DNA of 64,000 nucleotides. Source: a bacterium. GTDB lineage: Bacteria; Patescibacteriota; Microgenomatia; UBA10105; UBA927. The notes below the pieces were generated by a model. It worked only from the letters and a program-made list of their open reading frames with translations. It had not been told where the DNA came from and did not search any database. Position numbers and translations under genes: made by a program. The stretch's first letter is position 1; each line of letters begins with the position of its first letter. The stretch spans positions 26,446 to 90,445 of the forward strand of contig JAKAFY010000001.1 of NCBI GenBank assembly GCA_021817785.1. The letters are read 5' to 3'. Shown here piece after piece: positions 1-64,000 of the stretch.

Positions 1-2209
1 TGATGACGGTATGCGTGCCTTGGGGCACTGCTACTGCGCGAAAATCAAAATCAGCACGCAGAAGTGTGACGGGCTTGCCGTCTACCGTTGCATGCCAGCC
101 GGGTGCGAACACGTCCGAAAGGAACAGGAGTTTAGGAGTCGTCGCGTCCGTCCGGATCGTTACGGCATTGGGAAAATATGCGCTGATCGTCGCTTCCCCT
201 GCCCCGGCGCGAGGCTCAATATCCGGCTTCTGCTCTAATACAAGCGTCTCCCTGCGGTCGAATCCCGGGGAAAATAATGTGTTCAGTATCTGCTGATCCC
301 CCGTGACGACCCGGTAATCGGAGGCCAAAAACGCCCGCGGGAACGCAGCGGTGTTTTCAAACACTTCATACGTATTGTCTTTCCATATCGACCGGTACGA
401 GGGGAAATTCCAAAACGGGTATGCCCACGGGAACCGTCCGTCGCTTAGTTTATGGACAAGATAGCGCACCCCAAGCAGCCTGTTGATATCTTCCGCATAC
501 ACACCGTGTTTATTGAGCGTCACGACGGAGTGTTCCAAATTGCCGATCGTGCCGTTGGTCGCGGCCGAAATAAACTGACCATACCGCTTCTGGAATACGG
601 CATCGTATCCTTCCAGATTCGGTATGCCGAACGCGGATGTCACTTCATTGCCGAGATTTCCTGCTATCCGGGCATACGTAGGTTTCACCGTTGCCGTCAA
701 AAACGATAGAACCGGAGCCTCCGGATAGACGTATTCTTTGGGGTCAAACGGCATCCATTTAGCAGCATACCGGTACATGTCAAACGCTGTAACCAGTATG
801 AGGATAAACAGAAGAAACGGTCGCAGACGTTTCGGAGTAAAAAATCCGATGAGTACCACTCCTGCCGATCCCGCAACCAATACCACCGGCAGATAGGAAT
901 TCCGTACGGCCACGATAAGTTTTACGGCGGGCAACGGATGTCCGACGCGCAGCCAAGCCAACAAACCCACGCCGAACACCGCTATACATCCCGCCCAGAA
1001 AAACACCGAACGGCGGATGGGCTTTTGCCATGCTGCGCGCACTTCGTCCGTTCCTATTGCGGAAAGCACCGCCAGACAGAAGCTTACCAGTATGATGATC
1101 CGGGAAGCGGAACTCGTGGAAAGCACCGGAATACGGAGCGCGTACATAAGGTCGTTTAAAGGGGTGGGTACCGCCAGCATAAGAAACAGCAGTGCGGCTC
1201 CCGCAAAAAACAGGACGTGCCGGCTCCGGCGTTTGTATACGATGGCAAAAAAGGCAAGGAGCAACGGGGCGACCCCGATAAAACTCGCCCATTCTGCATA
1301 GTGGCCGAACCAATCATTCCGGGTTACCGGATTGCCGAAAAAATCAGGAGCGAACAGCGTGACAAGATACGACCAAGGGATGATCTCCCCTTTCCCGAAC
1401 GAACTGCTCCTTCCGGACGCTTCGTAGGAAGATAACGCCGGAAATATCTGTGGTGCCGCAATACTTACCCCGGCAAAAATGAACACAAAAAGCAAACCGG
1501 CGGATGTGTTCCGGGGCGATATCCGCCAGAGATAGGTCACATAGAAAAGCGCACACAGCAACACATACACGCTTATCTGAAAATGACCGGACAAGAGAGA
1601 AAGGGCAACGCCCAGAGACACAAGCGGTCCCGCCCACCGTTTCCCCTCCGTGTATCGGTTTGCCGCATAGAGGATAAGCGGCAGATACAGCGCCGCATAC
1701 CCCAGTGTGCCGTATGCCATCCATACCGTCATGAAGCCGCAAAACATAAACGAGACGCTGCCGATTACGCTAGCGGCCCGGGAACGCGCGAGACTGCGCA
1801 AAAACAGATACATAAAAAGTCCTGCGAGTAACGGCTGAAGCAAAATCATCAGGCTCCAGGCATGAATTTCCGGAAGGATGAAAAACAACAGATTCACCGG
1901 AGAGAATACGGCACTCTGGTAATTGCCGGCGTGCGCGGTTCCGGAAAAACTGTACGGATTCCAAAGCGGCACCTCTCCCTGCCGCCACGAGCTGATCGTG
2001 ACCCGTTTCCACGGGTATATTTGCGTAATCACGTCCGGCATGGCATTGTTTTTTACCGGCATGCCATGCGTCGTGCTCCATGGCGCAAAAAACGTCACCA
2101 GGTACGTCGAGGGAAATGGCACACGGTGCTTCACGATATACGGTGAAGCAAAGAGGAGCCAGACGCCGATAATACATCCTACTGCCCAACTGGAACGTAT
2201 ATATTTCAT
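1..2209 (-). CDS. YfhO-like polytopic membrane protein (GT-C-like glycosyltransferase), C-terminally truncated at window edge
   Basis: ATG at 2209 forms an ATGA overlap with the TGA of the upstream GT2 gene. Hand translation of the minus strand gives MKYIRSSWAVGCIIGVWLLFASPYIVKHRVPFPSTYLVTFFAPWSTTHGMPVKNNAMPDVITQIYPWKRVTISSWRQGEVPLWNPYSFSGTAHAGNYQSAVFSPVNLLFF... with no stop down to position 1. The WNPYxFSG/NYQSAVF motif is typical of the YfhO family. The ORF is absent from the supplied track because it has no in-window stop. The three listed minus ORFs 780..1313, 1344..1742 and 1770..2189 are a different, stop-interrupted frame. Confidence 0.7.
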   Translation of the reverse strand, partial: MKYIRSSWAVGCIIGVWLLFASPYIVKHRVPFPSTYLVTFFAPWSTTHGMPVKNNAMPDVITQIYPWKRVTISSWRQGEVPLWNPYSFSGTAHAGNYQSAVFSPVNLLFFILPEIHAWSLMILLQPLLAGLFMYLFLRSLARSRAASVIGSVSFMFCGFMTVWMAYGTLGYAALYLPLILYAANRYTEGKRWAGPLVSLGVALSLLSGHFQISVYVLLCALFYVTYLWRISPRNTSAGLLFVFIFAGVSIAAPQIFPALSSYEASGRSSSFGKGEIIPWSYLVTLFAPDFFGNPVTRNDWFGHYAEWASFIGVAPLLLAFFAIVYKRRSRHVLFFAGAALLFLMLAVPTPLNDLMYALRIPVLSTSSASRIIILVSFCLAVLSAIGTDEVRAAWQKPIRRSVFFWAGCIAVFGVGLLAWLRVGHPLPAVKLIVAVRNSYLPVVLVAGSAGVVLIGFFTPKRLRPFLLFILILVTAFDMYRYAAKWMPFDPKEYVYPEAPVLSFLTATVKPTYARIAGNLGNEVTSAFGIPNLEGYDAVFQKRYGQFISAATNGTIGNLEHSVVTLNKHGVYAEDINRLLGVRYLVHKLSDGRFPWAYPFWNFPSYRSIWKDNTYEVFENTAAFPRAFLASDYRVVTGDQQILNTLFSPGFDRRETLVLEQKPDIEPRAGAGEATISAYFPNAVTIRTDATTPKLLFLSDVFAPGWHATVDGKPVTLLRADFDFRAVAVPQGTHTVI

Positions 2210-3000
2210 ATCAGGGTTTTTTCGTGTTCGTGTGTATCCTCTACTGATTTCCGGTTTTGCAATTCCCAAAGTTTGGCATACGTGATAAACAGACTGAATG
2301 CCTGGTATATGCTCTCCACCCAACCCACCGTACCGGCTCTCCATCCCCCCTGACGGAAATAGGAATTTCCGAAACCGGTTATTGCCACCCGCAAAAGGCG
2401 CCACCAGGATATACTCGGGTGCCCGGCGTGCAACCTGAGAAGCGCTTCGGTTTCCGACCAGTCATTCGTCTTTCTGACCATTTCCTCCAGGCTCCGGTGG
2501 GTATCATGGATCAGTTCCCCGGGCAAATCCCCGATCGCGCCGTCCGTTACCGCAGTTTCATGCAGTTCTCCCTTCCATCCCTTGAGTGCGGTACGCCGGA
2601 ATAGCCGGAGCATCCGTTCGTTTCCCGGCCACCGCTGGCCCAGATAATAATTGGTACGGCACAAACGGTAGCTTGTCGGCTTTTGCTGCGACCATGTGTC
2701 TATGGCCCGGCGTATTTCCCGCGCCAGAGGGGCGCTTACCACCTCATCGGCATCGACATAGAGAAGCCACTCGCCTGTTGCCCGTTTGGCGGCAGCATTC
2801 CGAAGCTCTGCAAAATCCCCCATCGAAAATATGGCGATATGTGCCCCGTGCGCACGGGATACCGCCACGGTTTCATCCGTTGAGCCGTTATCGGCTACCA
2901 GCACCTCATCGCAGAATGCGAGCGCATCGATGCAGGTAGCGATACGCATCGCTTCATTTTTGGCAATGATGATAGCACTAAGCGAATTTTTTCGGTTCAT
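2206..3000 (-). CDS. glycosyltransferase family 2
   Basis: ORF 2206..3033. The likely start is MNRKNSLSAIIIAKNEAMRIATCIDALAFCDEVLVADNGSTDETV (ATG at 3000). GT2 DxD/NGSTD-type N-terminus. Confidence 0.8.
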   Translation of the reverse strand: MNRKNSLSAIIIAKNEAMRIATCIDALAFCDEVLVADNGSTDETVAVSRAHGAHIAIFSMGDFAELRNAAAKRATGEWLLYVDADEVVSAPLAREIRRAIDTWSQQKPTSYRLCRTNYYLGQRWPGNERMLRLFRRTALKGWKGELHETAVTDGAIGDLPGELIHDTHRSLEEMVRKTNDWSETEALLRLHAGHPSISWWRLLRVAITGFGNSYFRQGGWRAGTVGWVESIYQAFSLFITYAKLWELQNRKSVEDTHEHEKTLI

Positions 3001-3898
3001 ATTGTTTTCCCCATTTCCCGAGCATCGCATCACGGATCGCCTGTTTTTTTACCGCGCTCCCGAACCATAAAAACCGCATGCTTTCCCGTATGAGCGCAAT
3101 TTTCGTACGCATCGGCGCGTACCGCATGCCGACCAACAGTCTGTTCCGGGTTATATAGTATTCATGCAGCATATTGCCTGCCCCGCCGGTAGAGCCGGCA
3201 TTGACATGCCAGACAACGGATCGCGGGTAATACACGAGCGTATACCCCCGGGCTTTTGCCCGCAGGCAATAATCCAGATCTTCAAGATAGAGATAAAAAT
3301 GTTCATCCAGAAACCCCACGGATTCCGCAACTGACCGGCGGATCATCATGGAACACCCGGTGATAAACGGTGTTTGTTCCACGGTGTCATACTGTCCGTG
3401 ATCCACTTCATCCACTCCCTTATGACTGGCATACATATTGTCCCAATCCACCAGCCCTCCGGCATACCAGAACACGTTTCCTCGTTCTGACGCACTATAC
3501 CGGTCGTGATGGTACTCGTGACCAGGGGCAAAATATATTTTCGATCCGGCAACTCCCACCGCTTTGTCATCAAATGCGGCCACCAACGACAGCGCATCAG
3601 GGTGTACCAGGGTATCGTTATTCAGTAGCCAAATAAAATCCGCCCCATGCTCCAGTGCATAGTTCATGCCGGCGTTATTGCCTCCCGTAAACCCCAGGTT
3701 GTGTTTCAACGCGATGCAATGGACCCACGGATAGTGGTTTCGTAACACGGAAACCGAGTCGTTGGTGGAACCGTTATCGACAACCACCGTCGTAAGCGTC
3801 ACCCCGCGCTTTTTCAGTTTCATGACGGAATCCAGACATCGGGCGGTGTCCGCTATTCCGTTCCAGTTCACGATGACGATCGCGACATGTTTTGGCAT
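2978..3898 (-). CDS. glycosyltransferase family 2 (rhamnosyl/galactosyl-transferase-like)
   Basis: MPKHVAIVIVNWNGIADTARCLDSVMKLK...VVVDNGSTNDSV, 306 aa. Typical GT2 A-type fold motifs. Confidence 0.8.
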   Translation of the reverse strand: MPKHVAIVIVNWNGIADTARCLDSVMKLKKRGVTLTTVVVDNGSTNDSVSVLRNHYPWVHCIALKHNLGFTGGNNAGMNYALEHGADFIWLLNNDTLVHPDALSLVAAFDDKAVGVAGSKIYFAPGHEYHHDRYSASERGNVFWYAGGLVDWDNMYASHKGVDEVDHGQYDTVEQTPFITGCSMMIRRSVAESVGFLDEHFYLYLEDLDYCLRAKARGYTLVYYPRSVVWHVNAGSTGGAGNMLHEYYITRNRLLVGMRYAPMRTKIALIRESMRFLWFGSAVKKQAIRDAMLGKWGKQYEPKKFA

Positions 3899-3899
3899 A

Positions 3900-4514
3900 T
3901 TAATAGGTAATAATTTTTATCCGTGCGTTGTCTATGTACGCCTCTGCCCGTATGGTGGACTGCGCCATCACGATATACCGCTTATTACCGGGATCCAATG
4001 TTATCACGGCGCTCTGATGGCTGGAGGTATTGGATTCTGTTTGCAGCTGGCTCCCCCATACGTCATGTCCGTCGGTTGCATTAAATAACTTTACGTGCAT
4101 CCACCCAATACCCACAGGAATCCTAAGATAGGATTCAAACGTTACCTGTTTGATTTTGGGATACAGCGACGTATCGATCGTCGCTTCCGCTCCGGGTATT
4201 GCTTCCCATTGGTCATTTTTGGTGGTACCGCTCCCCAACGGGACATAATATTCCTTCGGCGACGTATCGGCCTGCACCGGTGCGACGGACGGCGTCACGG
4301 CAGCAGCCGGATGATCCGTGAGTTTTGCGGTGATCAGACCGGCCATAACCGGCGTGCATGCCGCGGGGCATGCCGAGGGTGCCTCCACCGATATCGGAAC
4401 TGCCGGAGCAGTGTCGGACGCTTTCCCAAAAACGACGATATCGAGAAATACCGTGTTCGTCACGACAAACAACAGCGCTGTCGCTATAAGCAATGTGTTA
4501 AATCGACCGTCCAT
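3900..4514 (-). CDS. hypothetical membrane-anchored/secreted protein
   Basis: 204 aa with an N-terminal hydrophobic helix (LLIATALLFVVTNTVFL), then Ala/Pro/Thr-rich linker and a beta-rich C-terminal domain. No recognizable family. Embedded in the glycosylation operon. Confidence 0.5.
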   Translation of the reverse strand: MDGRFNTLLIATALLFVVTNTVFLDIVVFGKASDTAPAVPISVEAPSACPAACTPVMAGLITAKLTDHPAAAVTPSVAPVQADTSPKEYYVPLGSGTTKNDQWEAIPGAEATIDTSLYPKIKQVTFESYLRIPVGIGWMHVKLFNATDGHDVWGSQLQTESNTSSHQSAVITLDPGNKRYIVMAQSTIRAEAYIDNARIKIITY

Positions 4515-5409
4515 ATCGTCGGAGCAATTTGTACCAGACCTTCAGAACCGGATTTGTCGTATTGGTCATTTTTGACGTTATTTTCCAGTAGGCAACTTCT
4601 CCTCCGGACCGGTCAAACTCTTTCAACACGGAGGACAGCGGCATGTTCTGTTCGGGAAACCGTTCCCGCTCCCAAAGCTTGGCAAATATGATAAACGAAT
4701 AAAACGACTGCAGTATCGAAAGCACCAGACCGTGCAGTCCGTCTTTATACCCGGATTGCGCGAAGTATATTTTCAGAAAATCGGACACGGGAAAACGGAT
4801 TGCGTCCGGCCAGGTTACCCGGTATTTTGCATTGACATACTTTTGCACTTCGTTTTCTATATAGATCACCTGCATTTTTTCCAGATACTGCGCTATGGAA
4901 TCATAATTGTGATGGATATAGGGCGATAGCAGCGTCGCCGTGGGACCGGTGACCGCGATATATTCATGAACGTGTTTTTGCGGGAACGACCCTTTCCCTC
5001 TGCGGAACAGTCGCAATTGCCGATCCGGCCACCACAAACCGTGCTGGATCCAACGCCCGAAAATTATGTTTTTCCGGGGAATCCAAAATCCTGAAATATC
5101 CGAGGATACCGACCGTAACCTGGTGCGAATCTCTTTGGCCAGTTCGTCCGTGACTTCTTCATCGTCATCCAGGTTCAGGATCCATTCCGACGTGGCCTTT
5201 GTGAATCCGAAATTTTTATTGACGTTGAGCATCAGATTATTCGGCTTACTATAGACATGGGGAGTATATTTCTGGGCCACCGTCACCGTATCATCGGTGG
5301 AACCGGAATCCACGACGATAAGCTCATCGGCGAGCGACCGGACCGAAGCCAACGTACGTGCCAGGCTTTTTGACCTGTTATGAGTAGATATGACAACGCT
5401 TAGGCTCAT
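4498..5409 (-). CDS. glycosyltransferase family 2
   Basis: MSLSVVISTHNRSKSLARTLASVRSLADELIVVDSGSTDDT. ATGA overlap with upstream wzx stop. Confidence 0.8.
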   Translation of the reverse strand: MSLSVVISTHNRSKSLARTLASVRSLADELIVVDSGSTDDTVTVAQKYTPHVYSKPNNLMLNVNKNFGFTKATSEWILNLDDDEEVTDELAKEIRTRLRSVSSDISGFWIPRKNIIFGRWIQHGLWWPDRQLRLFRRGKGSFPQKHVHEYIAVTGPTATLLSPYIHHNYDSIAQYLEKMQVIYIENEVQKYVNAKYRVTWPDAIRFPVSDFLKIYFAQSGYKDGLHGLVLSILQSFYSFIIFAKLWERERFPEQNMPLSSVLKEFDRSGGEVAYWKITSKMTNTTNPVLKVWYKLLRRYGRSI

Positions 5410-6854
5410 GGTAATTTACGCAGTGACCGGATAAATCCCTGTATCCGCGCACGGTCAAGCACATATACCGTCACTGCATAAAGTATAACACCCGACGCCC
5501 CCGTAACACCCAACAACGGGATTGTCCGCGGCGTATGGGGAAGAACCAGCAGGTACCACAGGCCCTGTACGACGATCCCTGCTACTGCACTCCATATCTG
5601 TTCCCAAAACGAAAACGGGACGATCTTTTTTACCTCGACCAGCACCCAGATGATCGTCAGCGATATGACGCAGAGGGCTATGGCTACTCCGTTATATCCG
5701 AACAATTTTAGTCCGATCAGGGAAAATACCCAGGTAAGGAGCGTCCACAACACCATAAAAAACAACGTCGTCTTTATCTTCCCTACCGCATTTAATGCGT
5801 TGGTAAGCGGCGTCGTCAGTCCGGCCACTGCCGCCGTGACGACAAAAAAGTAAAACGAGGTCAGCGCCGGATTCCATTTTGCGTATTTGGGGATGATGTC
5901 CACCATCGGATGTACAAAAAACAGCAATCCCATGGAAATTGGGAGCATCGTAAGCGCCAGGCCGTAAATCGTTTTTTCTATCGCTTTGCGCAGGAGATTG
6001 ACGTCATGCTGCAGGCGGGCAAACGCCGGGAATGTCACCCGGATGATGCTGTCCATGATAAGCCGCAGCGGCACCTCTGCCCATTTTTTGGCCCATCCGA
6101 TGTATCCTACCTGGGCAAAAGGCAGGGCTTTCCCCAAAAATATGGTAAATAAGTCATCTTTGAGGAGAGCCAGAAAGGAATTCATCTGGAACGGCACGCC
6201 GAACCGCAACAGGCGGTGCAGCACGTCTTTTGAAAATCCGATGGATATCTTCCACGGACGGATCATATAAATAGTCGTAAGTCCTATGATCCCGCGCGCC
6301 AGCACGCCCCAGGTAAAGCTGGTAATCCCGAATCCCCGCCATGCCAGATAGACCGTTACCACATAGAACCCGAGCGTTTCCGCGATCGTCGGGATCACTA
6401 ATTTATCAAACTGCAATTCCCGCTCCAGAAGGATGGACGGAATAGTTTTCAGCGAGGAAAGGAAAAACGATACGATGAGTGCGCGAAACAGCCAGGTTCC
6501 GGCATCGTTGAGATGGTAGAAATGAGACACAAAACTGGAGCCGATGAACGAAATGATGACCAGGATAACGACCAGAATCTGCTGGATGGTAAATGTCGTC
6601 GTGACTTCGGCATCCGTCAGCGGTTCTTTCTTTTGGACCAACGCCGCTGCCAACCCGATATCAGAAAAATATCCCAAAAACGAAATGACGGCGGACACGA
6701 CATAATACACGCCGAAAATAGACGGAGTTAAAAGAAGCGTCAGCAAAAACGTCGCGGTAAAAGCGATAATCTGCAAAAGAAATGTCCGCGTCGTCAAGGC
6801 GACGATGCCCCGGATCGACCGTTTTTTCAGTGTCGCTATATCAATGTCTTGCAT
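5406..6854 (-). CDS. wzx: Wzx-type oligosaccharide flippase (MOP superfamily polysaccharide biosynthesis protein)
   Basis: 482 aa with about 12-14 predicted TM helices. N-terminus KRSIRGIVALTTRTFLLQIIAFTATFLLTLLLTPSIFGVYYVVSAVISF is typical of the Polysacc_synt/Wzx family. Confidence 0.75.
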   Translation of the reverse strand: MQDIDIATLKKRSIRGIVALTTRTFLLQIIAFTATFLLTLLLTPSIFGVYYVVSAVISFLGYFSDIGLAAALVQKKEPLTDAEVTTTFTIQQILVVILVIISFIGSSFVSHFYHLNDAGTWLFRALIVSFFLSSLKTIPSILLERELQFDKLVIPTIAETLGFYVVTVYLAWRGFGITSFTWGVLARGIIGLTTIYMIRPWKISIGFSKDVLHRLLRFGVPFQMNSFLALLKDDLFTIFLGKALPFAQVGYIGWAKKWAEVPLRLIMDSIIRVTFPAFARLQHDVNLLRKAIEKTIYGLALTMLPISMGLLFFVHPMVDIIPKYAKWNPALTSFYFFVVTAAVAGLTTPLTNALNAVGKIKTTLFFMVLWTLLTWVFSLIGLKLFGYNGVAIALCVISLTIIWVLVEVKKIVPFSFWEQIWSAVAGIVVQGLWYLLVLPHTPRTIPLLGVTGASGVILYAVTVYVLDRARIQGFIRSLRKLP

Positions 6855-7590
6855 AGGATTTATTTCTCCATGGCCGCGTTACAAAAAGCCGCCACAGTCC
6901 TTTGAGATCGCCAATCGCCGTCCGCATGACCCGGACCGTCGATCCGGGATTGTCGATCCATGTCACCGGTTCTTCATAGATCCTCAGTCCCTGCTTTTCC
7001 CCGACGAGCAGCAGTTCGGAATCAAAAAACCATTCGTTATCCACTATATCAGGAATAAGTTCATTCACCACACGCCGGGTTACCGCCTTAAACCCGCACT
7101 GCGCGTCGGTAAAATGGACAAAAAAGAACAGTTTGATAAGCATGATGTATCCTTTTGACGTGATGTTGCGCATCAGCCCCCTGCCGTAGACACGTGAGCC
7201 TTTTGTGTTGCGGCTGCCGATCGCTATATCGAATCCGCGTTCCAGTGCATGGAGAAGCGGCGGAAAATGCTGTAAATCCGTAGAAAGGTCTATGTCCATA
7301 TAGGCGACATACTCATCCCGGCATCTGCTCCATACGTACTTTACCGCCCGACCCCGCCCTTTTTCCGAAAGATGTACGAACGAAACGCCGGTGTGTGCGG
7401 CGGCAATTTTTTTGGCGATGGCGAGTGTGCCATCCGTTGATGCGTTGTCAGCGATCGTCACGTGCCACGAAAAGTCCGTAAGGTGCTTGGACAAAAATCC
7501 CACGAGGGTCGCAACGCTTTGCATAAGTTCGCGTTCTTCGTTATACACCGGCAAAACGATATTAACCCTTGGTTTTTCTTTGTTTGACAT
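6841..7590 (-). CDS. polyprenol-phosphate sugar synthase (DPM1/GtrB-like GT2)
   Basis: Likely start MSNKEKPRVNIVLPVYNEERELMQSV...TIADNASTDGT...DIDLSTD...QCGFKA. This matches the dolichol-phosphate mannosyltransferase-like motif set. Confidence 0.8.
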   Translation of the reverse strand: MSNKEKPRVNIVLPVYNEERELMQSVATLVGFLSKHLTDFSWHVTIADNASTDGTLAIAKKIAAAHTGVSFVHLSEKGRGRAVKYVWSRCRDEYVAYMDIDLSTDLQHFPPLLHALERGFDIAIGSRNTKGSRVYGRGLMRNITSKGYIMLIKLFFFVHFTDAQCGFKAVTRRVVNELIPDIVDNEWFFDSELLLVGEKQGLRIYEEPVTWIDNPGSTVRVMRTAIGDLKGLWRLFVTRPWRNKSYARH

Positions 7591-9229
7591 AGATATACAA
7601 CAGCAATACAAACGAAACTCCAGATATAATATTCCCGAGTATCCGTACGGGAGTATCGGTGAATTTCGCCGTGATCACCGACTGCCCCGGTCCAATTTCG
7701 AGCGTCGGCAAACCGGCGGTAATACCAGGGCGCACTTCCGTGCCGTTTATGTAATATTTCCACCCCGGAAAATACGCGATGTTTATCCGTACAAGCGCCG
7801 ACGACGTAGATTCGACAACAGACTGGTTTTCAACGGCAGTCGCGCTGATCGGCGTTACGGAAATCGGCTGACGTGACTCTATTGTATCAGATACCACGTG
7901 GGACTCGGTTACGGGGCGCACTATGGCTTTCGGCAGGTATTCATCGGATATCTTTGACGCGCGCCAGCGGATGTCCCGGGACGACTCAAACGACCCTGAC
8001 GCCGGCGTATACAGATATTGCGGAACAAACCATTTTGTATTCATGCCGATCACTGCGGCGATGGCGCCAATGGTCACTACGGTCCGCCACAAAGGATGCC
8101 GGATAAGCGTTACGACAACGCCGGAAAGGGCCGCAAGTCCGAACAGGGCAAGCGCCAAAAACCGCCACGGGTACTGCAGATATGCAAACATCGGCAGTAT
8201 CCGCCACACCTCCAGGGAGAATTGGAGCGTGAGAAATATACCGATCACCGTGCTGAGGAACGCGACAAAAAGAAACCTCCGGTTTATTTTCTTTAGCGCA
8301 CCGGTCATCCACGCCAGTATGGCCACGAGCGCGAGTATGATGTGTATCTTTCCTATCATAAATGACAGACCGTCATTCAAACATCCGGGCGCGGATCCGC
8401 CGAATCCCCAGGCAGAACTCCAAAGCTGCACCATGCAGACGAAATGATCCGCATAATTAGCGGTGGCACTGACCTGGGCCGCCACATCGGTAAAACGCAT
8501 TTCCGAAAGTGCGGGCAACCAGAAAAACGAAGCCATGCCCAAACCGAGCAGGATCCACCGGAGATGCGCTGTATATTCTTTCTTGGCCGCATCGCGGCGG
8601 AATACTCGGACCAACCAGTATATGGCAAGTCCTATTCCCAAAAATACCGTCGTGGCATACCCCAAAAGGGTATGGGAAAGGATACTCCCGAAAAGGCCTA
8701 CGGCACCGGCGACCATAGCCCGGCGCTCACGCCCGCGGACGCCGTTCCATACGAGTGCGTACAGAATAAGCGGCCAAAACAGCAACTCCCAGTACTCGCC
8801 GACCGCACCGCGGACATATATCTGTACCGCATGATACGGCGCAAAAAGATACAATACTGCGGAAAGCGCTGCTGCCTGCCAACCGACCAGGGAAAACAAA
8901 ACGGCATATACTGCCGCGGCCGGAAGCACCATGCCGAGTCCGAACATTATTTTGGTCGATGTAAGGGCCGGAACCCCCAGTGCGTAAAAAAGCCCTCCGA
9001 CATAGTACGGCAACGGGCCGTAGAAATTGTAGATGGGGTACCCGTATCCGTATCCCAAATCCGCTACCCACCGCACGGGGAACTGACCTTCCTTGAGCAC
9101 CCTGCCCATCTCCACCACGCGCTCGACCTGCGTATTATCATGCATCGGGAAATATCCCCGGGATACCAGCGGCCGCCAGGCAACATAAGACAAAAGCAGT
9201 ATGCAGACCAATGGCAACAGGCGTTTCAT
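7562..9229 (-). CDS. polytopic membrane protein, YfhO/GT-C-like putative glycosyltransferase (paralog B)
   Basis: 555 aa with many TM helices. N-terminal MHDNTQVERVVEMGRVLKEGQFPVRWVADLGYGYGYPIYNFYGPLPYY loop motif is shared with the adjacent paralog. C-terminal ~130 aa is soluble and beta-rich. Confidence 0.75.
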   Translation of the reverse strand: MKRLLPLVCILLLSYVAWRPLVSRGYFPMHDNTQVERVVEMGRVLKEGQFPVRWVADLGYGYGYPIYNFYGPLPYYVGGLFYALGVPALTSTKIMFGLGMVLPAAAVYAVLFSLVGWQAAALSAVLYLFAPYHAVQIYVRGAVGEYWELLFWPLILYALVWNGVRGRERRAMVAGAVGLFGSILSHTLLGYATTVFLGIGLAIYWLVRVFRRDAAKKEYTAHLRWILLGLGMASFFWLPALSEMRFTDVAAQVSATANYADHFVCMVQLWSSAWGFGGSAPGCLNDGLSFMIGKIHIILALVAILAWMTGALKKINRRFLFVAFLSTVIGIFLTLQFSLEVWRILPMFAYLQYPWRFLALALFGLAALSGVVVTLIRHPLWRTVVTIGAIAAVIGMNTKWFVPQYLYTPASGSFESSRDIRWRASKISDEYLPKAIVRPVTESHVVSDTIESRQPISVTPISATAVENQSVVESTSSALVRINIAYFPGWKYYINGTEVRPGITAGLPTLEIGPGQSVITAKFTDTPVRILGNIISGVSFVLLLYIYVKQRKTKG

Positions 9230-58979: not shown

Positions 58980-60914
58980 TTATTTAAAAAGTGAAAATTT
59001 CTTGGTAAACTCACGAAGCTCGTCTGTTTTTCCAAACAGACAGATACCGAAATAATCAAGTTCAGCCTCCGGTGTTTCACCGGTTTTGCGGACCTGATCC
59101 GCCGATGTACCGACGGTCATCGTACTCGTAAAGTCGGTGAATATAATACCGCGTTTTTTTGCTTCTTCACGCACTGATCTGATTTGTTTTGCGTTATCTG
59201 CTTTCAATACGATAAACGGGAAGTGGGAAATATTTGGATGCACTCCCCCCTCTTTATCTTTATATTGCAAAAAGCACATATCTTTGGCTTTCTCAAATCC
59301 TCCGGCCAAACCGGCCGTCATGTGACCCAGGGCATTCATCAATCTGCCCGCTTCGACATCGTCTCGCAGAATTGCGATAAACCGCATACTCTTTTCATCC
59401 GGCAACGAAGTGGCCTTGACTGCTACCGGAGCTACGTCAACACCTGTCATTTTCTCCGGTCTAAGTGTGGGAAATGGGATCACTTCTTTAATCGATCGTG
59501 CGTCGGTAAGAAGCATCACGAACCGGTCGATACCTATGGCTATCCCGCACGTCGGAGGAAATCCGTGTTCGATCGCGGTGAGATAATCGTAGTCCGTCTG
59601 ATGCGCTTCATCGAAGCCTGCTTTTTCCCGTTCTTTTTCGTCGATAAACCGTTTGCGTAAATCTATCGGGTCGTTCAACTCCGTATAGTTGTTGCCGAGT
59701 TCGGAGCCAAACGCAAACATTTCGAACCGTTGGGTAAACCGCGGGTCCGCACATTTTTTGGCCAATGGCGAAATTTCTATCGGATAGTCATAGATAATCG
59801 TCGGCTGGATAAGTTTTTCCTCCACTGCTTCTTCAAACAGGAATGCGATACATTCTCCGATATGCTGCATTTTTTTCAATTCCGCGAATTTATGTTCGGC
59901 TATGCCTTCTACTTTTTGTATTGCGGCTTTCGCCTCGGCCAGCGTCTTCCACGATAGTGCATCGACCCCGGTAAATTCTTTGATGGCTTCCACGACTTTG
60001 TACCTGCTCCAGGGGCGTTTTACGTTCATCTCCACACCCTGATACATAAATTTCGTGGTTCCCAATACTTTGAGCGCTGTGTACTCAAAAATTTCTTCGA
60101 TGATATCCATGCCATAGGAATAATCCTCATACGCAATTTGCGCTTCAAACATCGTAAATTCCGGATTATGATCATGATCCACTCCTTCATTCCGGAATAC
60201 TTTTGTGATTTCAAACACTTTATCAAATCCACCGACGATCATCCGTTTCAAATACATTTCATCGGAAATCCTAAGATAAAAATTTGCATCGAGTTCGTTG
60301 TGGTGGGTAGAAAACGGCCTGGCAAATCCGCCGCCATAGACCGGCTGCAATGTCGGGGTTTCCACTTCCAGAAATCCGCGGTCCGTCAGAAAATCCCGCA
60401 CGCTATCTATAATCTTGCTTCGCAGTTGCAACCGATGTTTTACGTCTTCATTGAGTATCGTATCCAGATACCGTTTGCGGTACCGTTCCTCTACATCCTT
60501 CAATCCATGCCATTGATCAGGAAGAGGCAAAAGTGTTTTCGTAAGCAGCTGGAAGTCACTCGCAAAGACAGACACTTCACCCGCCTGCGTTTTGCCAATC
60601 ATGCCCTGCACGGCAATAAAATCAGCAATATCGAGAAGCGGAATAAGGGAAAATGCGGCGGCAGTACACGAGTCGGCTTTGAGCACCACCTGAATGTGCC
60701 CTGATTCGTCCTGCATGTCGACGAAATAGATTTTTCCGTGTCCGCGCATACCGACGATACGTCCGGTGATCGCCACTTCTTTTGCATCCATCTCACGAGC
60801 TTGTCCGATGGTTTGGTCGCGGCGCACGCTAGAGGGATATGGGTCTATCCCCTGCTTTTTTAACGCTTCAAGCTTTTCCAACCGAGCCTTTTTCAGATCA
60901 TCTATGGTTGCCAT
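58980..60914 (-). CDS. lysS: lysyl-tRNA synthetase (class II) with ~150-aa C-terminal DUF2000-like extension
   Basis: Start MATIDDLKKARLEKLE. OB anticodon-binding domain plus class II motifs through GIAIGIDRFVMLLTDARSIKEVIPFPTLRP. An extra domain follows: KSMRFIAILRDDVEAGRLMNALGHMTAGLAGG...FPFIVLKADNAKQIR... Confidence 0.85.
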   Translation of the reverse strand: MATIDDLKKARLEKLEALKKQGIDPYPSSVRRDQTIGQAREMDAKEVAITGRIVGMRGHGKIYFVDMQDESGHIQVVLKADSCTAAAFSLIPLLDIADFIAVQGMIGKTQAGEVSVFASDFQLLTKTLLPLPDQWHGLKDVEERYRKRYLDTILNEDVKHRLQLRSKIIDSVRDFLTDRGFLEVETPTLQPVYGGGFARPFSTHHNELDANFYLRISDEMYLKRMIVGGFDKVFEITKVFRNEGVDHDHNPEFTMFEAQIAYEDYSYGMDIIEEIFEYTALKVLGTTKFMYQGVEMNVKRPWSRYKVVEAIKEFTGVDALSWKTLAEAKAAIQKVEGIAEHKFAELKKMQHIGECIAFLFEEAVEEKLIQPTIIYDYPIEISPLAKKCADPRFTQRFEMFAFGSELGNNYTELNDPIDLRKRFIDEKEREKAGFDEAHQTDYDYLTAIEHGFPPTCGIAIGIDRFVMLLTDARSIKEVIPFPTLRPEKMTGVDVAPVAVKATSLPDEKSMRFIAILRDDVEAGRLMNALGHMTAGLAGGFEKAKDMCFLQYKDKEGGVHPNISHFPFIVLKADNAKQIRSVREEAKKRGIIFTDFTSTMTVGTSADQVRKTGETPEAELDYFGICLFGKTDELREFTKKFSLFK

Positions 60915-60961
60915 ATATGTATTATATACATCCACCTTCGCCAAGGCTACGGTGGACACAG

Positions 60962-61005: not shown

Positions 61006-61470
61006 TTACTCTATGTGTAAGATCTTGTAGAGGATTTTACCCGCCGGGGCTTCTACCTCTACTTTGTCGCCGACCTTCTTGCCAAGCAATGCTTTGCCAA
61101 GTGGCGACTCATGGGAGATTTTTTTACTCATGGGATCCGCTTCCCACTCGCCGACGATGGTAAATTCTTCTTTTTTGCCGTTGATGTGGAGCGTGACTTT
61201 GCATCCCAAATCTATCTGGCCTTTGGAGTGGCTGCTGATGACTTTTACGCCGTGCAATATTTCCTCCAGCTCGAGTATGCGTCCGTCGATGAACGCCAGC
61301 GCCTGTTTGGCGTCGGTGTATTCGCTGTTTTCGGACAGATCTCCCTGCTCGCGGGCGTTGGCAAGGCGTTCCACAGCTACCGGGCGTTTTGTGCTCACCA
61401 GGTCCTCATACTCGGCCTTGAGCGTCGCCAGTCCTTCTTTGGTCAACATGACATTATGATTGGTATCCAT
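61006..61470 (-). CDS. greA: transcription elongation factor GreA
   Basis: Start MDTNHNVMLTKEGLATLKAEYEDLV...NAREQGDLSENSEYTDAKQ. Confidence 0.85.
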   Translation of the reverse strand: MDTNHNVMLTKEGLATLKAEYEDLVSTKRPVAVERLANAREQGDLSENSEYTDAKQALAFIDGRILELEEILHGVKVISSHSKGQIDLGCKVTLHINGKKEEFTIVGEWEADPMSKKISHESPLGKALLGKKVGDKVEVEAPAGKILYKILHIE

Positions 61471-61695
61471 ATATTCAGTAAAAAAAGCCTCCCCAGGAGC
61501 ATATATATTCCGGGGAGACACTACGTTATAAATTCATCGGGTACGCGTTTAGGCGTACCAACCAGCTAGAATTCTCTCAAACTTATATACCCTTGTCAAG
61601 TCCCGATAGCCTCAAAAAATGGCTATCGTGGATGCACGATCCCGGCTTCGCCGAGGATCGGCACGCATATATAATATTTGATAAAATACAATGTA

Positions 61696-61947
61696 ATGTT
61701 CTTTGTTTATATACTTAAATCGATTAAGTCAGGAACTTATTACATAGGATGCACAAACGATATCGAGAGAAGATTAAAAGAGCATAATTCAGGTATTAGC
61801 ATCTACACAAAAACCGATAAACCATGGAAATTATGTTACAATGAAGCGTTCAATTCGTTATCGGAAGCAAGAAAAAGAGAAAATCAAATTAAATCGTGGA
61901 AAAAACGTAAAGCGATTGAGAAATTAATACAGGCCCCCATCGTCTAG
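61696..61947 (+). CDS. GIY-YIG nuclease-family small protein (UPF0213-like)
   Basis: MFFVYILKSIKSGTYYIGCTNDIERRLKEHNSG. AT-rich. The last 5 codons overlap the tRNA-Glu 5' end. Confidence 0.6.
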   Translation: MFFVYILKSIKSGTYYIGCTNDIERRLKEHNSGISIYTKTDKPWKLCYNEAFNSLSEARKRENQIKSWKKRKAIEKLIQAPIV

Positions 61948-62006
61948 CGGCCTAGGACGGTTCCTTCTCAAGGAACAAATCGTCGGTCCGAATCCGACTG
62001 GGGGTA
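61933..62006 (+). tRNA. tRNA-Glu (anticodon CUC)
   Basis: Hand-folded cloverleaf: acceptor GCCCCCA/TGGGGGT, D-stem GTCT/GGAC, anticodon stem GTTCC/GGAAC with loop TTCTCAA (anticodon CTC), T-stem GTCGG/CCGAC with loop TCCGAAT, discriminator A. Confidence 0.8.
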
Positions 62007-62014
62007 CATACAAT

Positions 62015-62046
62015 AAATCGCTTGGCAATGCCGAGCGATTTTTTGT
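62015..62046 (+). terminator. rho-independent terminator after tRNA-Glu
   Basis: AATCGCTTGGC-AAT-GCCGAGCGATT hairpin followed by TTTTTTG. Confidence 0.55.
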
Positions 62047-62405
62047 ATACGCCAGACGGTGAGGAACGACCAACGGTGCGTCGACTGGTTCGTTAGCGAG
62101 CTAATTCTGATTGGCGAGCTTACGAACCATCGATCCTCGAAGGGGAAATCCGACTGGAGGCGAACCGCGTACGGTGCGCGCCGCTTTGAACGAAGTGAAA
62201 AGCAAGTACTCTCGGAGTAAATCCGACATGGCTATCGTGTTGAATCATCAATCTGTCAACACCCGGTGTTGGTAAAGCTAAAATTTGGAGTATGAATTAT
62301 GGCCAACTCAAGGCTAATTCCAAATGTATAAATAGTACGATTTTGTAAAATAGATTACATCGGAATATAACAGTTAATGATATATTATAAGACACTTAAG
62401 TCATC

Positions 62406-62639
62406 ATGGTTATGTGTTTAAAACGGATTGAAAAAAATAATGCAATTGATGCATTGGAAAAGGCCCTTGAAGCTCACGCGGCAGCGTATCAGGCCGGAGG
62501 ATGGGGAGCCTTATCCCCATACGCACAAAAATTGCATGAGCTAGATGAGATAGCATTTCGATCAGCACGCGCTCCAAAAGGTGGTAAGCAAGCTCGACTT
62601 TTGCGTGGATACCAAGAGGTGCGCCGTCGATTCTTCTAA
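62406..62639 (+). CDS. hypothetical small protein
   Basis: 77 aa ORF in the AT-rich region downstream of the tRNA. No motifs. Confidence 0.3.
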   Translation: MVMCLKRIEKNNAIDALEKALEAHAAAYQAGGWGALSPYAQKLHELDEIAFRSARAPKGGKQARLLRGYQEVRRRFF

Positions 62640-62708
62640 TGCCATTTTGGCTTCTACTTCCACGGACATCAGACGAAGATCACACAACATCCAATTCCGT
62701 TGGCATCT

Positions 62709-63347
62709 CTATACGTTTGAATCTTTATTGGATTCCAGAATATAATTTGCTAATTCTTTTCTACTCCATAACTCTACATTTAATTTATTTGATACGTATT
62801 CAGCATTTTTCGTAAAGCTGCTATTTGTTATGACAAGGGCATGGTCACAGTTAAACATCGCCTTTGCAGCAACTAGCTTTTCTACTGCCGTATTGTCTAC
62901 GTGCTCATGTTGTCGATAGCGTTTGGCTTGCACCGCAGTTTTTTGTCCATCCTTAGTAATTATCAAATCTGCACCATACTCGTTACCCGGATGTGACTGA
63001 GAAAAATGATCAACGGAATATCCTAATCTCTGAAACAGAATCACCAAGTATTTCTCAAATTGCTCACCCGTCATTTTGTCAATCTCTGGTAGCCCGGCTC
63101 GAAAGATTTTTAGTTGTTCATATATCTGATAAACAAAACCAATGATTACAAGCTCTGCAAGAAGAACTAGGAGGGCCCAGACCCATGCGGGAACAAACAC
63201 ATCGACATTTGGGATATATGCACCAGTTGTTGTAATACCGTGGTTCTTGGTAATAACAAGGAACCCGATATACCCGGCTAAAAGAGCTCCAAATTGATAC
63301 AATAAATTCTCTAACGAATATTTCGATCTACGCCTATAACTCATCAA
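62709..63347 (-). CDS. membrane-anchored Mrr_cat-type restriction endonuclease-like protein
   Basis: Two N-terminal TM helices, then GEQFEKYLVILFQRLGYSVDHFSQSHPGNEYGADLIITKDGQKTAVQAKRYRQHEHV (PD-(D/E)xK Mrr catalytic core). Confidence 0.65.
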   Translation of the reverse strand: MMSYRRRSKYSLENLLYQFGALLAGYIGFLVITKNHGITTTGAYIPNVDVFVPAWVWALLVLLAELVIIGFVYQIYEQLKIFRAGLPEIDKMTGEQFEKYLVILFQRLGYSVDHFSQSHPGNEYGADLIITKDGQKTAVQAKRYRQHEHVDNTAVEKLVAAKAMFNCDHALVITNSSFTKNAEYVSNKLNVELWSRKELANYILESNKDSNV

Positions 63348-63937: not shown

Positions 63938-64000
63938 ATGAAATCATCATCTTCGCTTTCCAGACAAACGTTCGGCATGATGATCGGCCTCGGAGTCCAA
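63938..64000 (+). CDS. partial CDS start (MKSSSSLSRQTFGMMIGLGVQ...), function unknown
   Basis: ATG preceded by AAAGGGG. Runs off the window end. Confidence 0.3.
   Translation, partial: MKSSSSLSRQTFGMMIGLGVQ

Follow-up and report, generated by a model that had tools for sequence, protein, structure and literature searches.

What has happened to the DNA on either side of the only tRNA gene in a 64-kb stretch of a Patescibacteria genome? The stretch (hereafter the window; 64,000 nucleotides of contig JAKAFY010000001.1, assembly GCA_021817785.1) contains a single tRNA gene, tRNA-Glu(CTC), as called by both ARAGORN and Rfam. A small GIY-YIG nuclease gene runs into its 5′ end, and partial copies of its 3′ end follow downstream. 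Coordinates are window positions, and labels of the form L0xx denote the contigs and genomes with which the window was compared. By lysyl-tRNA synthetase (LysRS), the nearest genomes are Patescibacteria, the closest being the Candidatus Gottesmanbacteria metagenome-assembled genome (MAG) L019, with 86% amino-acid identity. We propose, with moderate confidence, that tRNA-Glu genes in this lineage (Microgenomates/Gottesmanbacteria-like) are a preferred target of mobile DNA that replaces gene ends, on both sides of the gene, and that the window holds the residue of such events. The feature itself consists of relics plus one intact small nuclease gene, with no active element left. The parts on which the argument rests are the following.

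61696–61947, + strand: gene of an 83-aa GIY-YIG nuclease (Pfam PF01541, 2e-18; also 83 aa on public contigs)
61933–62007, + strand: intact tRNA-Glu(CTC) (ARAGORN; Rfam RF00005, 54.6 bits; 100% identical to the L019 tRNA)
62015–62047, + strand: intrinsic, bidirectional-type terminator of tRNA-Glu (12-bp stem, then a T run; inverted repeat I1)
62063–62163, + strand: unit 2, a decayed type B split-T-arm unit (covariance model, nhmmer, fold)
62161–62232, + strand: unit 3, a decayed type A split-T-arm unit (similarity to the L023 unit)

Downstream of the intact tRNA, its 3′ segment recurs as direct repeats in the same orientation at 62147–62160 (13/14 nt) and 62219–62231, which bears out the degenerate tRNA 3′-end copies reported in a preliminary description of this locus. 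The exact 11-mer AATCCGACTGG is found at 61991 and 62147 only, both strands of the 64 kb considered, and the match extends to 13/14 nt; the third copy, AAATCCGACATGG, is gapped. The probability of an exact tRNA 11-mer lying within 400 nt on the same strand is ~1e-4 (~6e-3 for any 11-mer of the tRNA). Each copy also has a 5′ half of the T-arm, set apart from the 3′ half by an insert, which the preliminary description had overlooked. Both units start with this half, ACGGTGCG (62073–62080 and 62171–62178), the counterpart of TCGGTCCG in the tRNA. In unit 2, ACGGTGCG (T-stem 5′ strand plus the first loop bases) is followed by an insert of ~66 nt, which contains a bipartite hairpin at 62086–62129, and then by AATCCGACTGGAGG (62147–62160), equivalent to the 3′ part of the T-loop, the T-stem 3′ strand, and the acceptor 3′ strand. 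In unit 3, a 41-nt insert separates ACGGTGCG from AAATCCGACATGG, and direct repeat D5 ties the start of this unit to the start of unit 2. The terminator directly 3′ of the tRNA had likewise been overlooked, and the copies do not lie within an AT-rich stretch as had been stated: GC is 0.54 over 62000–62199 versus 0.33–0.36 over 62200–62499. The GC-rich stretch 3′ of the terminator measures ~190 nt and is followed by an AT-rich spacer, the AT-rich part being only ~62280–62400.

The same arrangement was found, better preserved, in related genomes. Perfect copies of the genome's own tRNA 3′ end (16–18 nt) are present in L023, L051 (two copies), and L053, and a copy with two mismatches in L022. They lie 100–450 nt downstream of tRNA-Glu on the same strand, run from G57/A58 in the T-loop to nt 74, and track the T-stem of each genome (CCGAC in the window, CCCAC in L023, CCGGC in L051 and L053). 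No such 3′ copies were seen at seven non-Glu tRNAs in the related loci scanned. Searching JGI metagenomes with the unit motif returned nine loci, and in eight of them a tRNA immediately precedes the unit (tRNA-Glu, TTC or CTC, in seven and tRNA-Cys in one). The units have a common plan: the T-stem 5′ strand and first loop bases (..GCCGG TTCG / TNCG), an insert of 27–80 nt, and then AAT with the T-stem 3′ strand and acceptor 3′ strand (AAT CCGGC ..GGGGTAC). A new terminator often follows, and the same terminator feature stands 3′ of the tRNA and of each displaced copy in L020, L023, L051, and L053. On the 3′ side there are at least two classes of insert (type A, short; type B, long), and type C was seen only in displaced 5′ fragments. 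The insert folds into two hairpins, one of them long and bipartite, and its sequence varies between copies with the pairing kept. In an alignment of 13 sequences, 90.6% of the stem cells were paired versus 76% in shuffles (0/500 reached the observed value), with slid controls at 31–54%, and 12 base pairs were changed on both sides. Rfam scans of 61400–62800, a check suggested in the preliminary description, and of the L079, L081, and L083 units returned only tRNAs (E up to 1–10), so that no Rfam family other than tRNA is matched in that part of the window.

The degenerate copies in the window belong with these units. A covariance model, R1, built on 12 units from other genomes with the window excluded, gave its top match in the whole window at 62063–62163, over its full length (26.1 bits, E 9e-5); its second match fell on the T-arm and 3′ end of the tRNA itself, passing over the 73-nt insert. 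Unit 2 was also matched by nhmmer (E 0.011–0.13), its fold agrees with that of the units of other genomes, and the window hairpin apex GAGCTAATTCTGATTGGCGAG is nearly identical to the apices in L078 and L081. For unit 3, AAGTACTCTCGGAGTAAATCC matches AAGTACTCTTGGGGTAAATCC of the L023 unit, whose end copies the L023 tRNA 3′ end perfectly over 17 nt; among the 76 loci compared, this pattern is confined to the window's own contigs, L023, and one chance viral match. Judged from these alignments, the downstream copies are taken to be true displaced tRNA 3′ ends and not chance matches, because related genomes carry copies of their own tRNAs and because model R1 independently matches 62063–62163.

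In their placement, the units behave like boundaries of inserted DNA. Behind tRNA-Glu(CTC) of L080, at least six units are spread over 7 kb (990–8240), with unrelated open reading frames (ORFs) between them. In L051, two minimal units precede a segment of 1.75 kb, at whose far end stands a degenerate third copy, and in L077, L079, and L085 the flanks are common and the terminator-plus-insert cassette or the following DNA differs. The layout of L080 looks like an integron-like cassette array; several of its ORFs were read from the sequence, with no family search on those, as PAS-domain, GNAT acetyltransferase, ArsC/LMWPTP-like, and response regulator proteins, and three L080 ORFs scanned with Pfam gave no match. 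In L078 (6600–7080), a type B unit lies behind tRNA-Cys(GCA), and the intact gene is closely preceded by a displaced tRNA-Cys 5′ half; the T-stem of this unit (GGG/CCC) differs from that of the adjacent tRNA, yet is self-complementary.

Which enzyme could have produced these boundaries? No tyrosine recombinase was found at any tRNA-Glu site examined, and the only recombinases there are large serine recombinases. L077 and L079 carry a 5′-truncated member (Zn_ribbon_recom) that runs antisense through the displaced copy and has its stop in the second hairpin. Its full-length relatives, of ~540 aa, are common in Patescibacteria and consist of Resolvase, Recombinase, and Zn_ribbon_recom domains, with weak NCBIfam matches to XisF and Ccr. 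At all four loci looked up for three homologues, the 3′ end of the recombinase ORF overlaps the tRNA gene or its 3′ end in antisense; the overlapped tRNA is tRNA-Glu(CTC) in L087, tRNA-Gln in L086, and an interrupted tRNA in L088 and L089. The two junctions of L087 have a common 12-nt core, CTGGCGGTACAA, the distal one being followed by an older short type A unit with its own terminator, and the reconstructed attP reads ..GCGTCTAA CTGGCGGTACAA AACTGG... In L090, a 437-aa serine recombinase is encoded just behind the GIY-YIG/tRNA-Glu pair. The preliminary description had interpreted the copies as att scars of tyrosine-integrase elements. A recombination or integration hotspot is upheld by these data; the tyrosine class is not, serine recombinases being found wherever an enzyme is visible.

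Two further observations concern the recombinase loci. In L087 (10001–11658), the recombinase stop falls in the tRNA anticodon loop, and the C-terminal tail would read ..LYRQ, then LDAIRTALASQ.. in the excised form (from the reconstructed attP) versus ..LYRQ, then RESNPRSSR in the integrated form. Since the last codons of the enzyme are the antisense of the tRNA 3′ half, integration is predicted to switch its C-terminal tail. In L088 (11560–11900) and L089, the overlapped tRNA seems to be interrupted by ~250 nt between its 3′ and 5′ parts and was not called by ARAGORN; a group I intron, of which there are reported examples in Patescibacteria tRNAs (PMC13011429), may account for the interruption.

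On the 5′ side, the overlap of the GIY-YIG gene with the tRNA had been recognized in the preliminary description, which treated the gene as incidental. The overlap is confirmed, and from its distribution the gene appears to be a family-wide partner of tRNA-Glu. It starts with the ATG at 61696 and encodes 83 aa, as in its homologues; PF01541 spans residues 7–77 of the 89-aa ORF reading submitted, which are residues 1–71 of the 83-aa protein, and there are weak matches to the N-termini of homing-endonuclease models (PHROGs, NCBIfam, PADLOC). The overlap with the tRNA is 15 nt: GCC CCC ATC GTC TAG provides codons 80–83 (APIV) and the stop, and is at the same time nt 1–15 of the tRNA. Among the 51 closest homologues (39–100% identity), 19 end in [AG][PAL][IVF]V, the translation of tRNA-Glu nt 1–12 up to the TAG at nt 13–15. 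All seven leader-position contexts (window, L021, L090, L093, L095, L096, and L097) are directly 5′ of tRNA-Glu. Five of these loci (L090, L093, and L095–L097), reached from four homologues that were looked up, have distinct downstream contexts and place the gene directly 5′ of tRNA-Glu(TTC), in a pyrG-rplS-UPF0102-MS-channel neighborhood, with a gap of 2 nt in one, a gap of 12 nt in two, and a 15-nt overlap in two. At the greA/CTC locus, L021 likewise carries the gene, in the frame seen in the window. The 3′ cassettes of L022 and L051 each enclose a more distantly related copy, and no copy away from tRNA-Glu was found in the 1.1 Mb of loci compared.

This gene is absent at the syntenic sites of L019 and L077/L079/L085. 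In a comparison of eight sequences, the window protein is 60–64% identical to the TTC-locus copies of other genera versus 46% to the orthologous CTC copy of L021. A distribution that is sporadic and incongruent with the locus is as expected of a mobile endonuclease ORF, the type to which this family would belong. Its neighbors also include tRNA debris. In L021, L093, and L097, a displaced tRNA 5′ fragment beside the promoter, upstream of the GIY-YIG gene, is interrupted after ..TCG (nt 10) by a GC-rich hairpin insert, and in L090 and L096 a shorter tRNA piece, ..TAGGACAT (D-arm and anticodon stem), lies just before the GIY-YIG ATG. At ~190 nt before tRNA-Glu(CTC), L020 and L084 have a displaced 5′ fragment (GCCCCGTTCG, type B insert, CTAGCGGCCAGAGGA), located by a promoter-like box and followed by no GIY-YIG gene. 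Because this fragment carries a type B insert, the same insert class occurs in 5′ and 3′ displaced fragments, always after ..TTCG.

In the wider GIY-YIG family (11,789 representative clusters, E up to 0.001), the tRNA-derived ending is present in only 4 of the 147 top representatives; the tRNA overlap thus characterizes the close subfamily rather than small GIY-YIG proteins as a whole. Separately, of the 63 N-terminal extensions seen in this wider family of small GIY-YIG proteins, 12 read as translated tRNA genes (..LAHLVERR.., ..VVGSNP.., ..RFES..) versus 3% in shuffles, so that small GIY-YIG genes may often sit directly downstream of tRNA genes in other phyla.

We propose the following course of events. 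On the 3′ side, elements would insert at the T-loop or the 3′ end of the tRNA and bring a fresh 3′ end with a terminator; the previous 3′ end would be pushed downstream, and repeated rounds would stack the displaced ends. In the window, two old displaced ends (62063–62163 and 62161–62232) would remain, mutated and without a recombinase. As judged from the relatives, the enzyme would most likely have been a large serine recombinase of the family that overlaps tRNAs in antisense. On the 5′ side, the GIY-YIG gene, placed between the tRNA promoter and nt 1, would borrow nt 1–15 as its last codons and stop, and would probably be transcribed as a tRNA leader and split from the tRNA by RNase P. By a presumed endonuclease activity and homing, this ORF would insert into the 5′ part of tRNA-Glu while carrying a replacement 5′ part. 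The 77-aa ORF and the membrane Mrr-like nuclease farther downstream may simply be the next genes of a variable region. A more daring version, which we find possible yet doubtful, is that these loci represent an undescribed two-sided gene-end replacement, in which the leader GIY-YIG would replace the 5′ part and the split T-arm, possibly folded like attC, would be the substrate of the tRNA-entering serine recombinases, the two sides perhaps being linked.

How variable is the locus between close relatives? The greA/tRNA-Glu(CTC) pairing is kept in many related genomes. L019 provides the comparison with a relative lacking the insertion for which the preliminary description had called: its tRNA is identical and is preceded, at 9 nt, by a promoter-like TGcTACAAT, and it has no GIY-YIG gene, units, terminator hairpin, or GC-rich stretch. 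The distance from the tRNA to obg is 2.9 kb, with different genes, in L019 versus 8 kb in the window. As L019 differs on both flanks, both sides of the tRNA are variable between close relatives. No tRNA 3′ copies were found in L024, L028, and L063.

Within the strain, several metagenome contigs and one NCBI MAG carry the window DNA without change. From tRNA nt 1 onward, L010 (GCA_021839525.1) has the sequence of the window, with two mismatches over the 9.4 kb overlapped by the identical-strain contigs L011 and L012. Upstream of tRNA nt 1, positions 1–1811 of L010 encode a 76-aa protein, a 159-aa transglycosylase, and RecT (PHROG 9e-71) instead of GIY-YIG and greA, with 41 nt from the start codon of the 76-aa gene to the tRNA. 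This arrangement fits an element joined at the 5′ part of the tRNA, as at a prophage junction, of which the other junction was not recovered, and the RecT relatives of L010 are encoded on phage-sized contigs of 33–46 kb. Extending the RecT element of L010 was tried and abandoned: the exact RecT is on one contig only, and L071-type phage contigs (tyrosine integrase, terminase) have neither a tRNA-Glu match nor a unit. Scans of viral contigs returned no L010 junction, no type B motif, and one chance match to the unit-3 motif inside a phage ORF. Short-read unitigs from Logan (five samples) end at 61957 (twice) and 61950 and start at 61929 (twice), 61933, and 61940. These ends are compatible with an att core spanning tRNA nt 1–25, but their fit to simple de Bruijn expectations is not exact, and they are suggestive only.

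Several observations weigh against the proposal. Recombinase, distal repeat, and intact element are all absent at the window site, so that the mechanism rests wholly on relatives. Between the tRNA and the distal copies there is no ORF encoding a recombinase domain, and tblastn with three serine recombinases and one tyrosine recombinase was blank in the window and in L010. An integrase or terminal repeat had been expected beyond position 64000; approximate matching, HMM searches, and tblastn found no recombinase, tRNA 3′ copy, or unit in the ~8.6 kb past the window end, where the identical contigs encode three small ORFs, an RND efflux pump, an adaptor, MarR, obg, cspA, and a DEAD helicase. Both units in the window are degraded copies (13/14 nt, and 10/11 nt with an indel). 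The strongly co-varying hairpins are left unexplained by the att arm of a serine recombinase and hint at a role at the RNA level or as single-strand DNA, and the L087 core is the extreme 3′ end of the tRNA (12 nt), whereas the units imply a joint in the T-loop; these may be separate systems. On the 5′ side, the GIY-YIG protein consists of its catalytic domain alone (83 aa); the DNA-binding domain typical of site-specific homing endonucleases is missing, and the window has no clear displaced 5′ fragment between promoter and ORF, only a weak upstream relic. The synteny of the TTC-locus GIY-YIG genes is conserved from genus to genus and would also agree with vertical descent and loss. Finally, L010 could be an assembly chimera through the 75-nt tRNA.

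Against this background, other explanations were weighed. The simplest is that the short repeats are chance matches in intergenic DNA without a recombination history, a possibility which the preliminary description itself had raised. The repeats are only 11–14 nt long, and other repeats of 11–12 nt exist in the same 2.6 kb; however, the 11-mer occurs at just two places in 64 kb with the low location probability given above (~1e-4), and homologous units with perfect copies of the genome's own tRNA are found in many genomes and, through model R1 (E 9e-5), in the window. We count this reading as refuted and regard it as hardly credible. The reading of the preliminary description was a classical tyrosine-integrase island starting from the tRNA, with the 77-aa ORF and the Mrr-like nuclease as cargo and with the integrase and far repeat lost or located farther downstream. 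In its favor, islands often carry nucleases of the Mrr type. Its textbook signature is a partial tRNA 3′ repeat starting in the T-loop (PMC4383910), and the length and gene content of the tRNA-obg region (8 kb versus 2.9 kb in L019) also suit it. However, only serine recombinases, and no tyrosine recombinase, are present at the tRNA-Glu sites examined, and repeat, unit, and recombinase are all missing in the 8.6 kb past the window end. Because both tRNA copies precede them, the 77-aa ORF and the Mrr gene also fall outside the repeat-bounded segment, and we consider an island of this kind improbable.

It is also conceivable that the units are genes of a structured, tRNA-like RNA, a three-way junction closed by the T-stem with a free acceptor 3′ strand, and that their likeness to att scars is secondary. 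The junction nucleotides are conserved and the stems vary with compensating changes, G-U pairs fall on the tRNA-sense strand, and, relative to shuffles, the fold of the 251-nt stretch is slightly better for the + strand (z -1.97) than for the - strand (z -1.11). An RNA gene does not sit well with the lack of an Rfam family, with a terminator before each unit and no evident promoter, or with stacked arrays that have unrelated cargo and cassettes swapped between strains; the same insert is moreover found inside a displaced 5′ tRNA fragment, and the window copies are visibly decayed. We judge such a gene to be quite unlikely. Unlikely, too, is that the GIY-YIG nuclease alone drives everything, by cutting tRNA-Glu DNA after TCG at nt 10 and 57, with repair from invaded alleles copying the nuclease gene and replacement gene ends, displaced fragments with filler inserts being left on either side, and the serine recombinases merely co-resident. 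In its favor, the interruption falls at one kind of site in the displaced fragments of either side (..(A/G/T)TCG, then the insert), and GIY-YIG genes also occur within the 3′ cassettes of L022 and L051. There are precedents in the endonuclease ORFs of fungal mitochondria, which carry replacement gene ends and displace the native end (PMC3630166), and in T4 SegB, a homing enzyme of the GIY-YIG type whose site of action is a tRNA gene cluster (PMC2330249). Yet 3′ units without GIY-YIG are found at many loci (L020, L023, L053, and L077–L085), the serine recombinase ORFs physically overlap the copies, and the protein has no DNA-binding domain. Gene-end replacement from both sides remains the preferred explanation.

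Three other candidates were tried and rejected. A hammerhead reading of CUGGUGAG failed, with the core A replaced, no GAAA element, and no Rfam match. A miniature element (inverted termini, AATCC target duplication) and an IS200/IS605-like element inserting 3′ of GTTCG both disagree with the position of hairpin 3, and each is an unproven idea.

How does the proposal relate to known systems? Insertion of mobile DNA at tRNA genes is textbook knowledge, and the window itself holds only relics. The tycheposons of Prochlorococcus (10.1101/2020.12.28.424599) and the islands in Islander (PMC4383910) insert at a tRNA and restore the gene, and a displaced partial tRNA marks their far end. Newcomers push older elements outward, fragmented integrases and extra partial tRNAs accumulate, and a minority use large serine recombinases (10.1101/2020.12.28.424599; PMC4383910). 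Unlike in those elements, the displaced ends described here always keep both T-arm halves around a structured insert of 27–80 nt, many units are only ~100–150 nt long (terminator plus insert), and the recombinase ORF enters the tRNA in antisense. The bacterium is also a member of the candidate phyla radiation (CPR) with a reduced genome, and the tRNA is invaded from its 5′ side as well. The recombinases of the relatives have the same domains as large serine recombinases (phage integrases; CcrA/B and XisF type), a similar length of ~540 aa, and, in L087, a core of 12 nt; they differ in targeting tRNA genes and in having an ORF end that is the antisense of a tRNA, and none is encoded in the window. 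Integron attC arrays likewise have cassettes that end in a recombination-associated hairpin with kept structure and variable sequence. This is a resemblance and not membership: no site examined has an IntI-type tyrosine recombinase or attC R/L boxes, the units carry a tRNA 3′ end, and the array starts in the tRNA.

For the 5′ side, the closest parallel is with fungal mitochondrial mORFs, mobile endonuclease ORFs that enter a conserved gene and bring a replacement gene end (PMC3630166). Like mORFs and T4 SegB, the leader gene has a GIY-YIG domain, a site in or next to a conserved gene, a sporadic distribution, a displaced native fragment, and, probably, expression with the host transcript (PMC3630166, PMC2330249). 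It differs from both in its bacterial tRNA target, in that the 5′ end is replaced, in the stop codon borrowed from the tRNA, and in consisting of an 83-aa catalytic domain only. SegB is a much larger protein with a DNA-binding part.

In the literature searched, we found no description of minimal GIY-YIG ORFs that end inside tRNA-Glu and are accompanied by displaced 5′ fragments, of displaced tRNA 3′ ends whose T-arm is split by a co-varying insert and which are sometimes stacked in arrays, or of serine recombinase genes that run antisense into their target tRNA. If the proposal is right, this GIY-YIG family would be a bacterial, tRNA-directed counterpart of the mitochondrial mobile endonuclease ORFs. 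Patescibacteria have tiny genomes with few recognized mobile elements, and much of their gene flux may pass through such loci. They would also be a source of compact site-specific recombinases with tRNA-defined targets and would explain assembly breaks at tRNA-Glu in Patescibacteria.

The remaining features around the tRNA are the following.

61607–61665, + strand: GC-rich hairpin relic upstream of the promoter (GATAGCC..GGCTATC, ATCGTG..CACGAT, CCCGGCTTCGCCGAGGAT)
61670–61675, + strand: likely -10 box TATAAT of the GIY-YIG and tRNA-Glu transcript, at a position homologous to the TGcTACAAT of L019
62406–62639, + strand: 77-aa ORF with no assigned function, also called as a gene on the identical contigs and outside the repeat-bounded region
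62709–63344, - strand: gene of a 211-aa protein with two predicted transmembrane segments and an Mrr_cat nuclease domain, outside the repeat-bounded region

The TATAAT box likely drives a joint transcript of the GIY-YIG gene and tRNA-Glu, as its position suggests. In L021, L093, and L097, displaced tRNA 5′ fragments upstream of GIY-YIG are followed by a CNCCGGT-hairpin-ACCGAGWGT element, to which the relic upstream of the box is similar; L019 has a segment homologous to the relic. With low confidence, the relic may be a decayed displaced tRNA 5′ fragment with a type C insert. An exact 12-nt direct repeat, ATGGCTATCGTG, at 61619–61630 and 62228–62239 flanks the block of promoter, GIY-YIG gene, tRNA, and units, and its second copy begins right at the end of the third tRNA 3′ copy; as ~0.2 such repeats are expected by chance in the region, it was left out of the evidence. 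The T-loop of the window tRNA-Glu reads TCCGAAT, with C in place of the usual T of TTCGAAT; L019 has the same loop, and other relatives have TTCGAAT.

Both the 77-aa ORF and the Mrr-like gene lie beyond the last tRNA 3′ copy. The former has no match in Pfam, PHROG, PADLOC, or NCBIfam. For the latter, the Mrr_cat domain and a predicted membrane anchor, both given in the preliminary description, were borne out: Mrr_cat (Pfam 2.8e-26, residues 89–202) follows two hydrophobic segments (residues ~14–32 and ~47–75), which make up an N-terminus without the DNA-binding (winged-helix) domain of Mrr type IV enzymes. Its matches in PADLOC are at the domain level only. On the other side, the divergent greA (61006–61470) adjoins tRNA-Glu, and a lysS-DUF2000 fusion and an HD-domain gene are also nearby. 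The lysyl-tRNA synthetase (58980–60959, - strand) has a C-terminal DUF2000 domain (Pfam 3e-35), a fusion present in some relatives only; elsewhere the LysRS match ends near residue 503.

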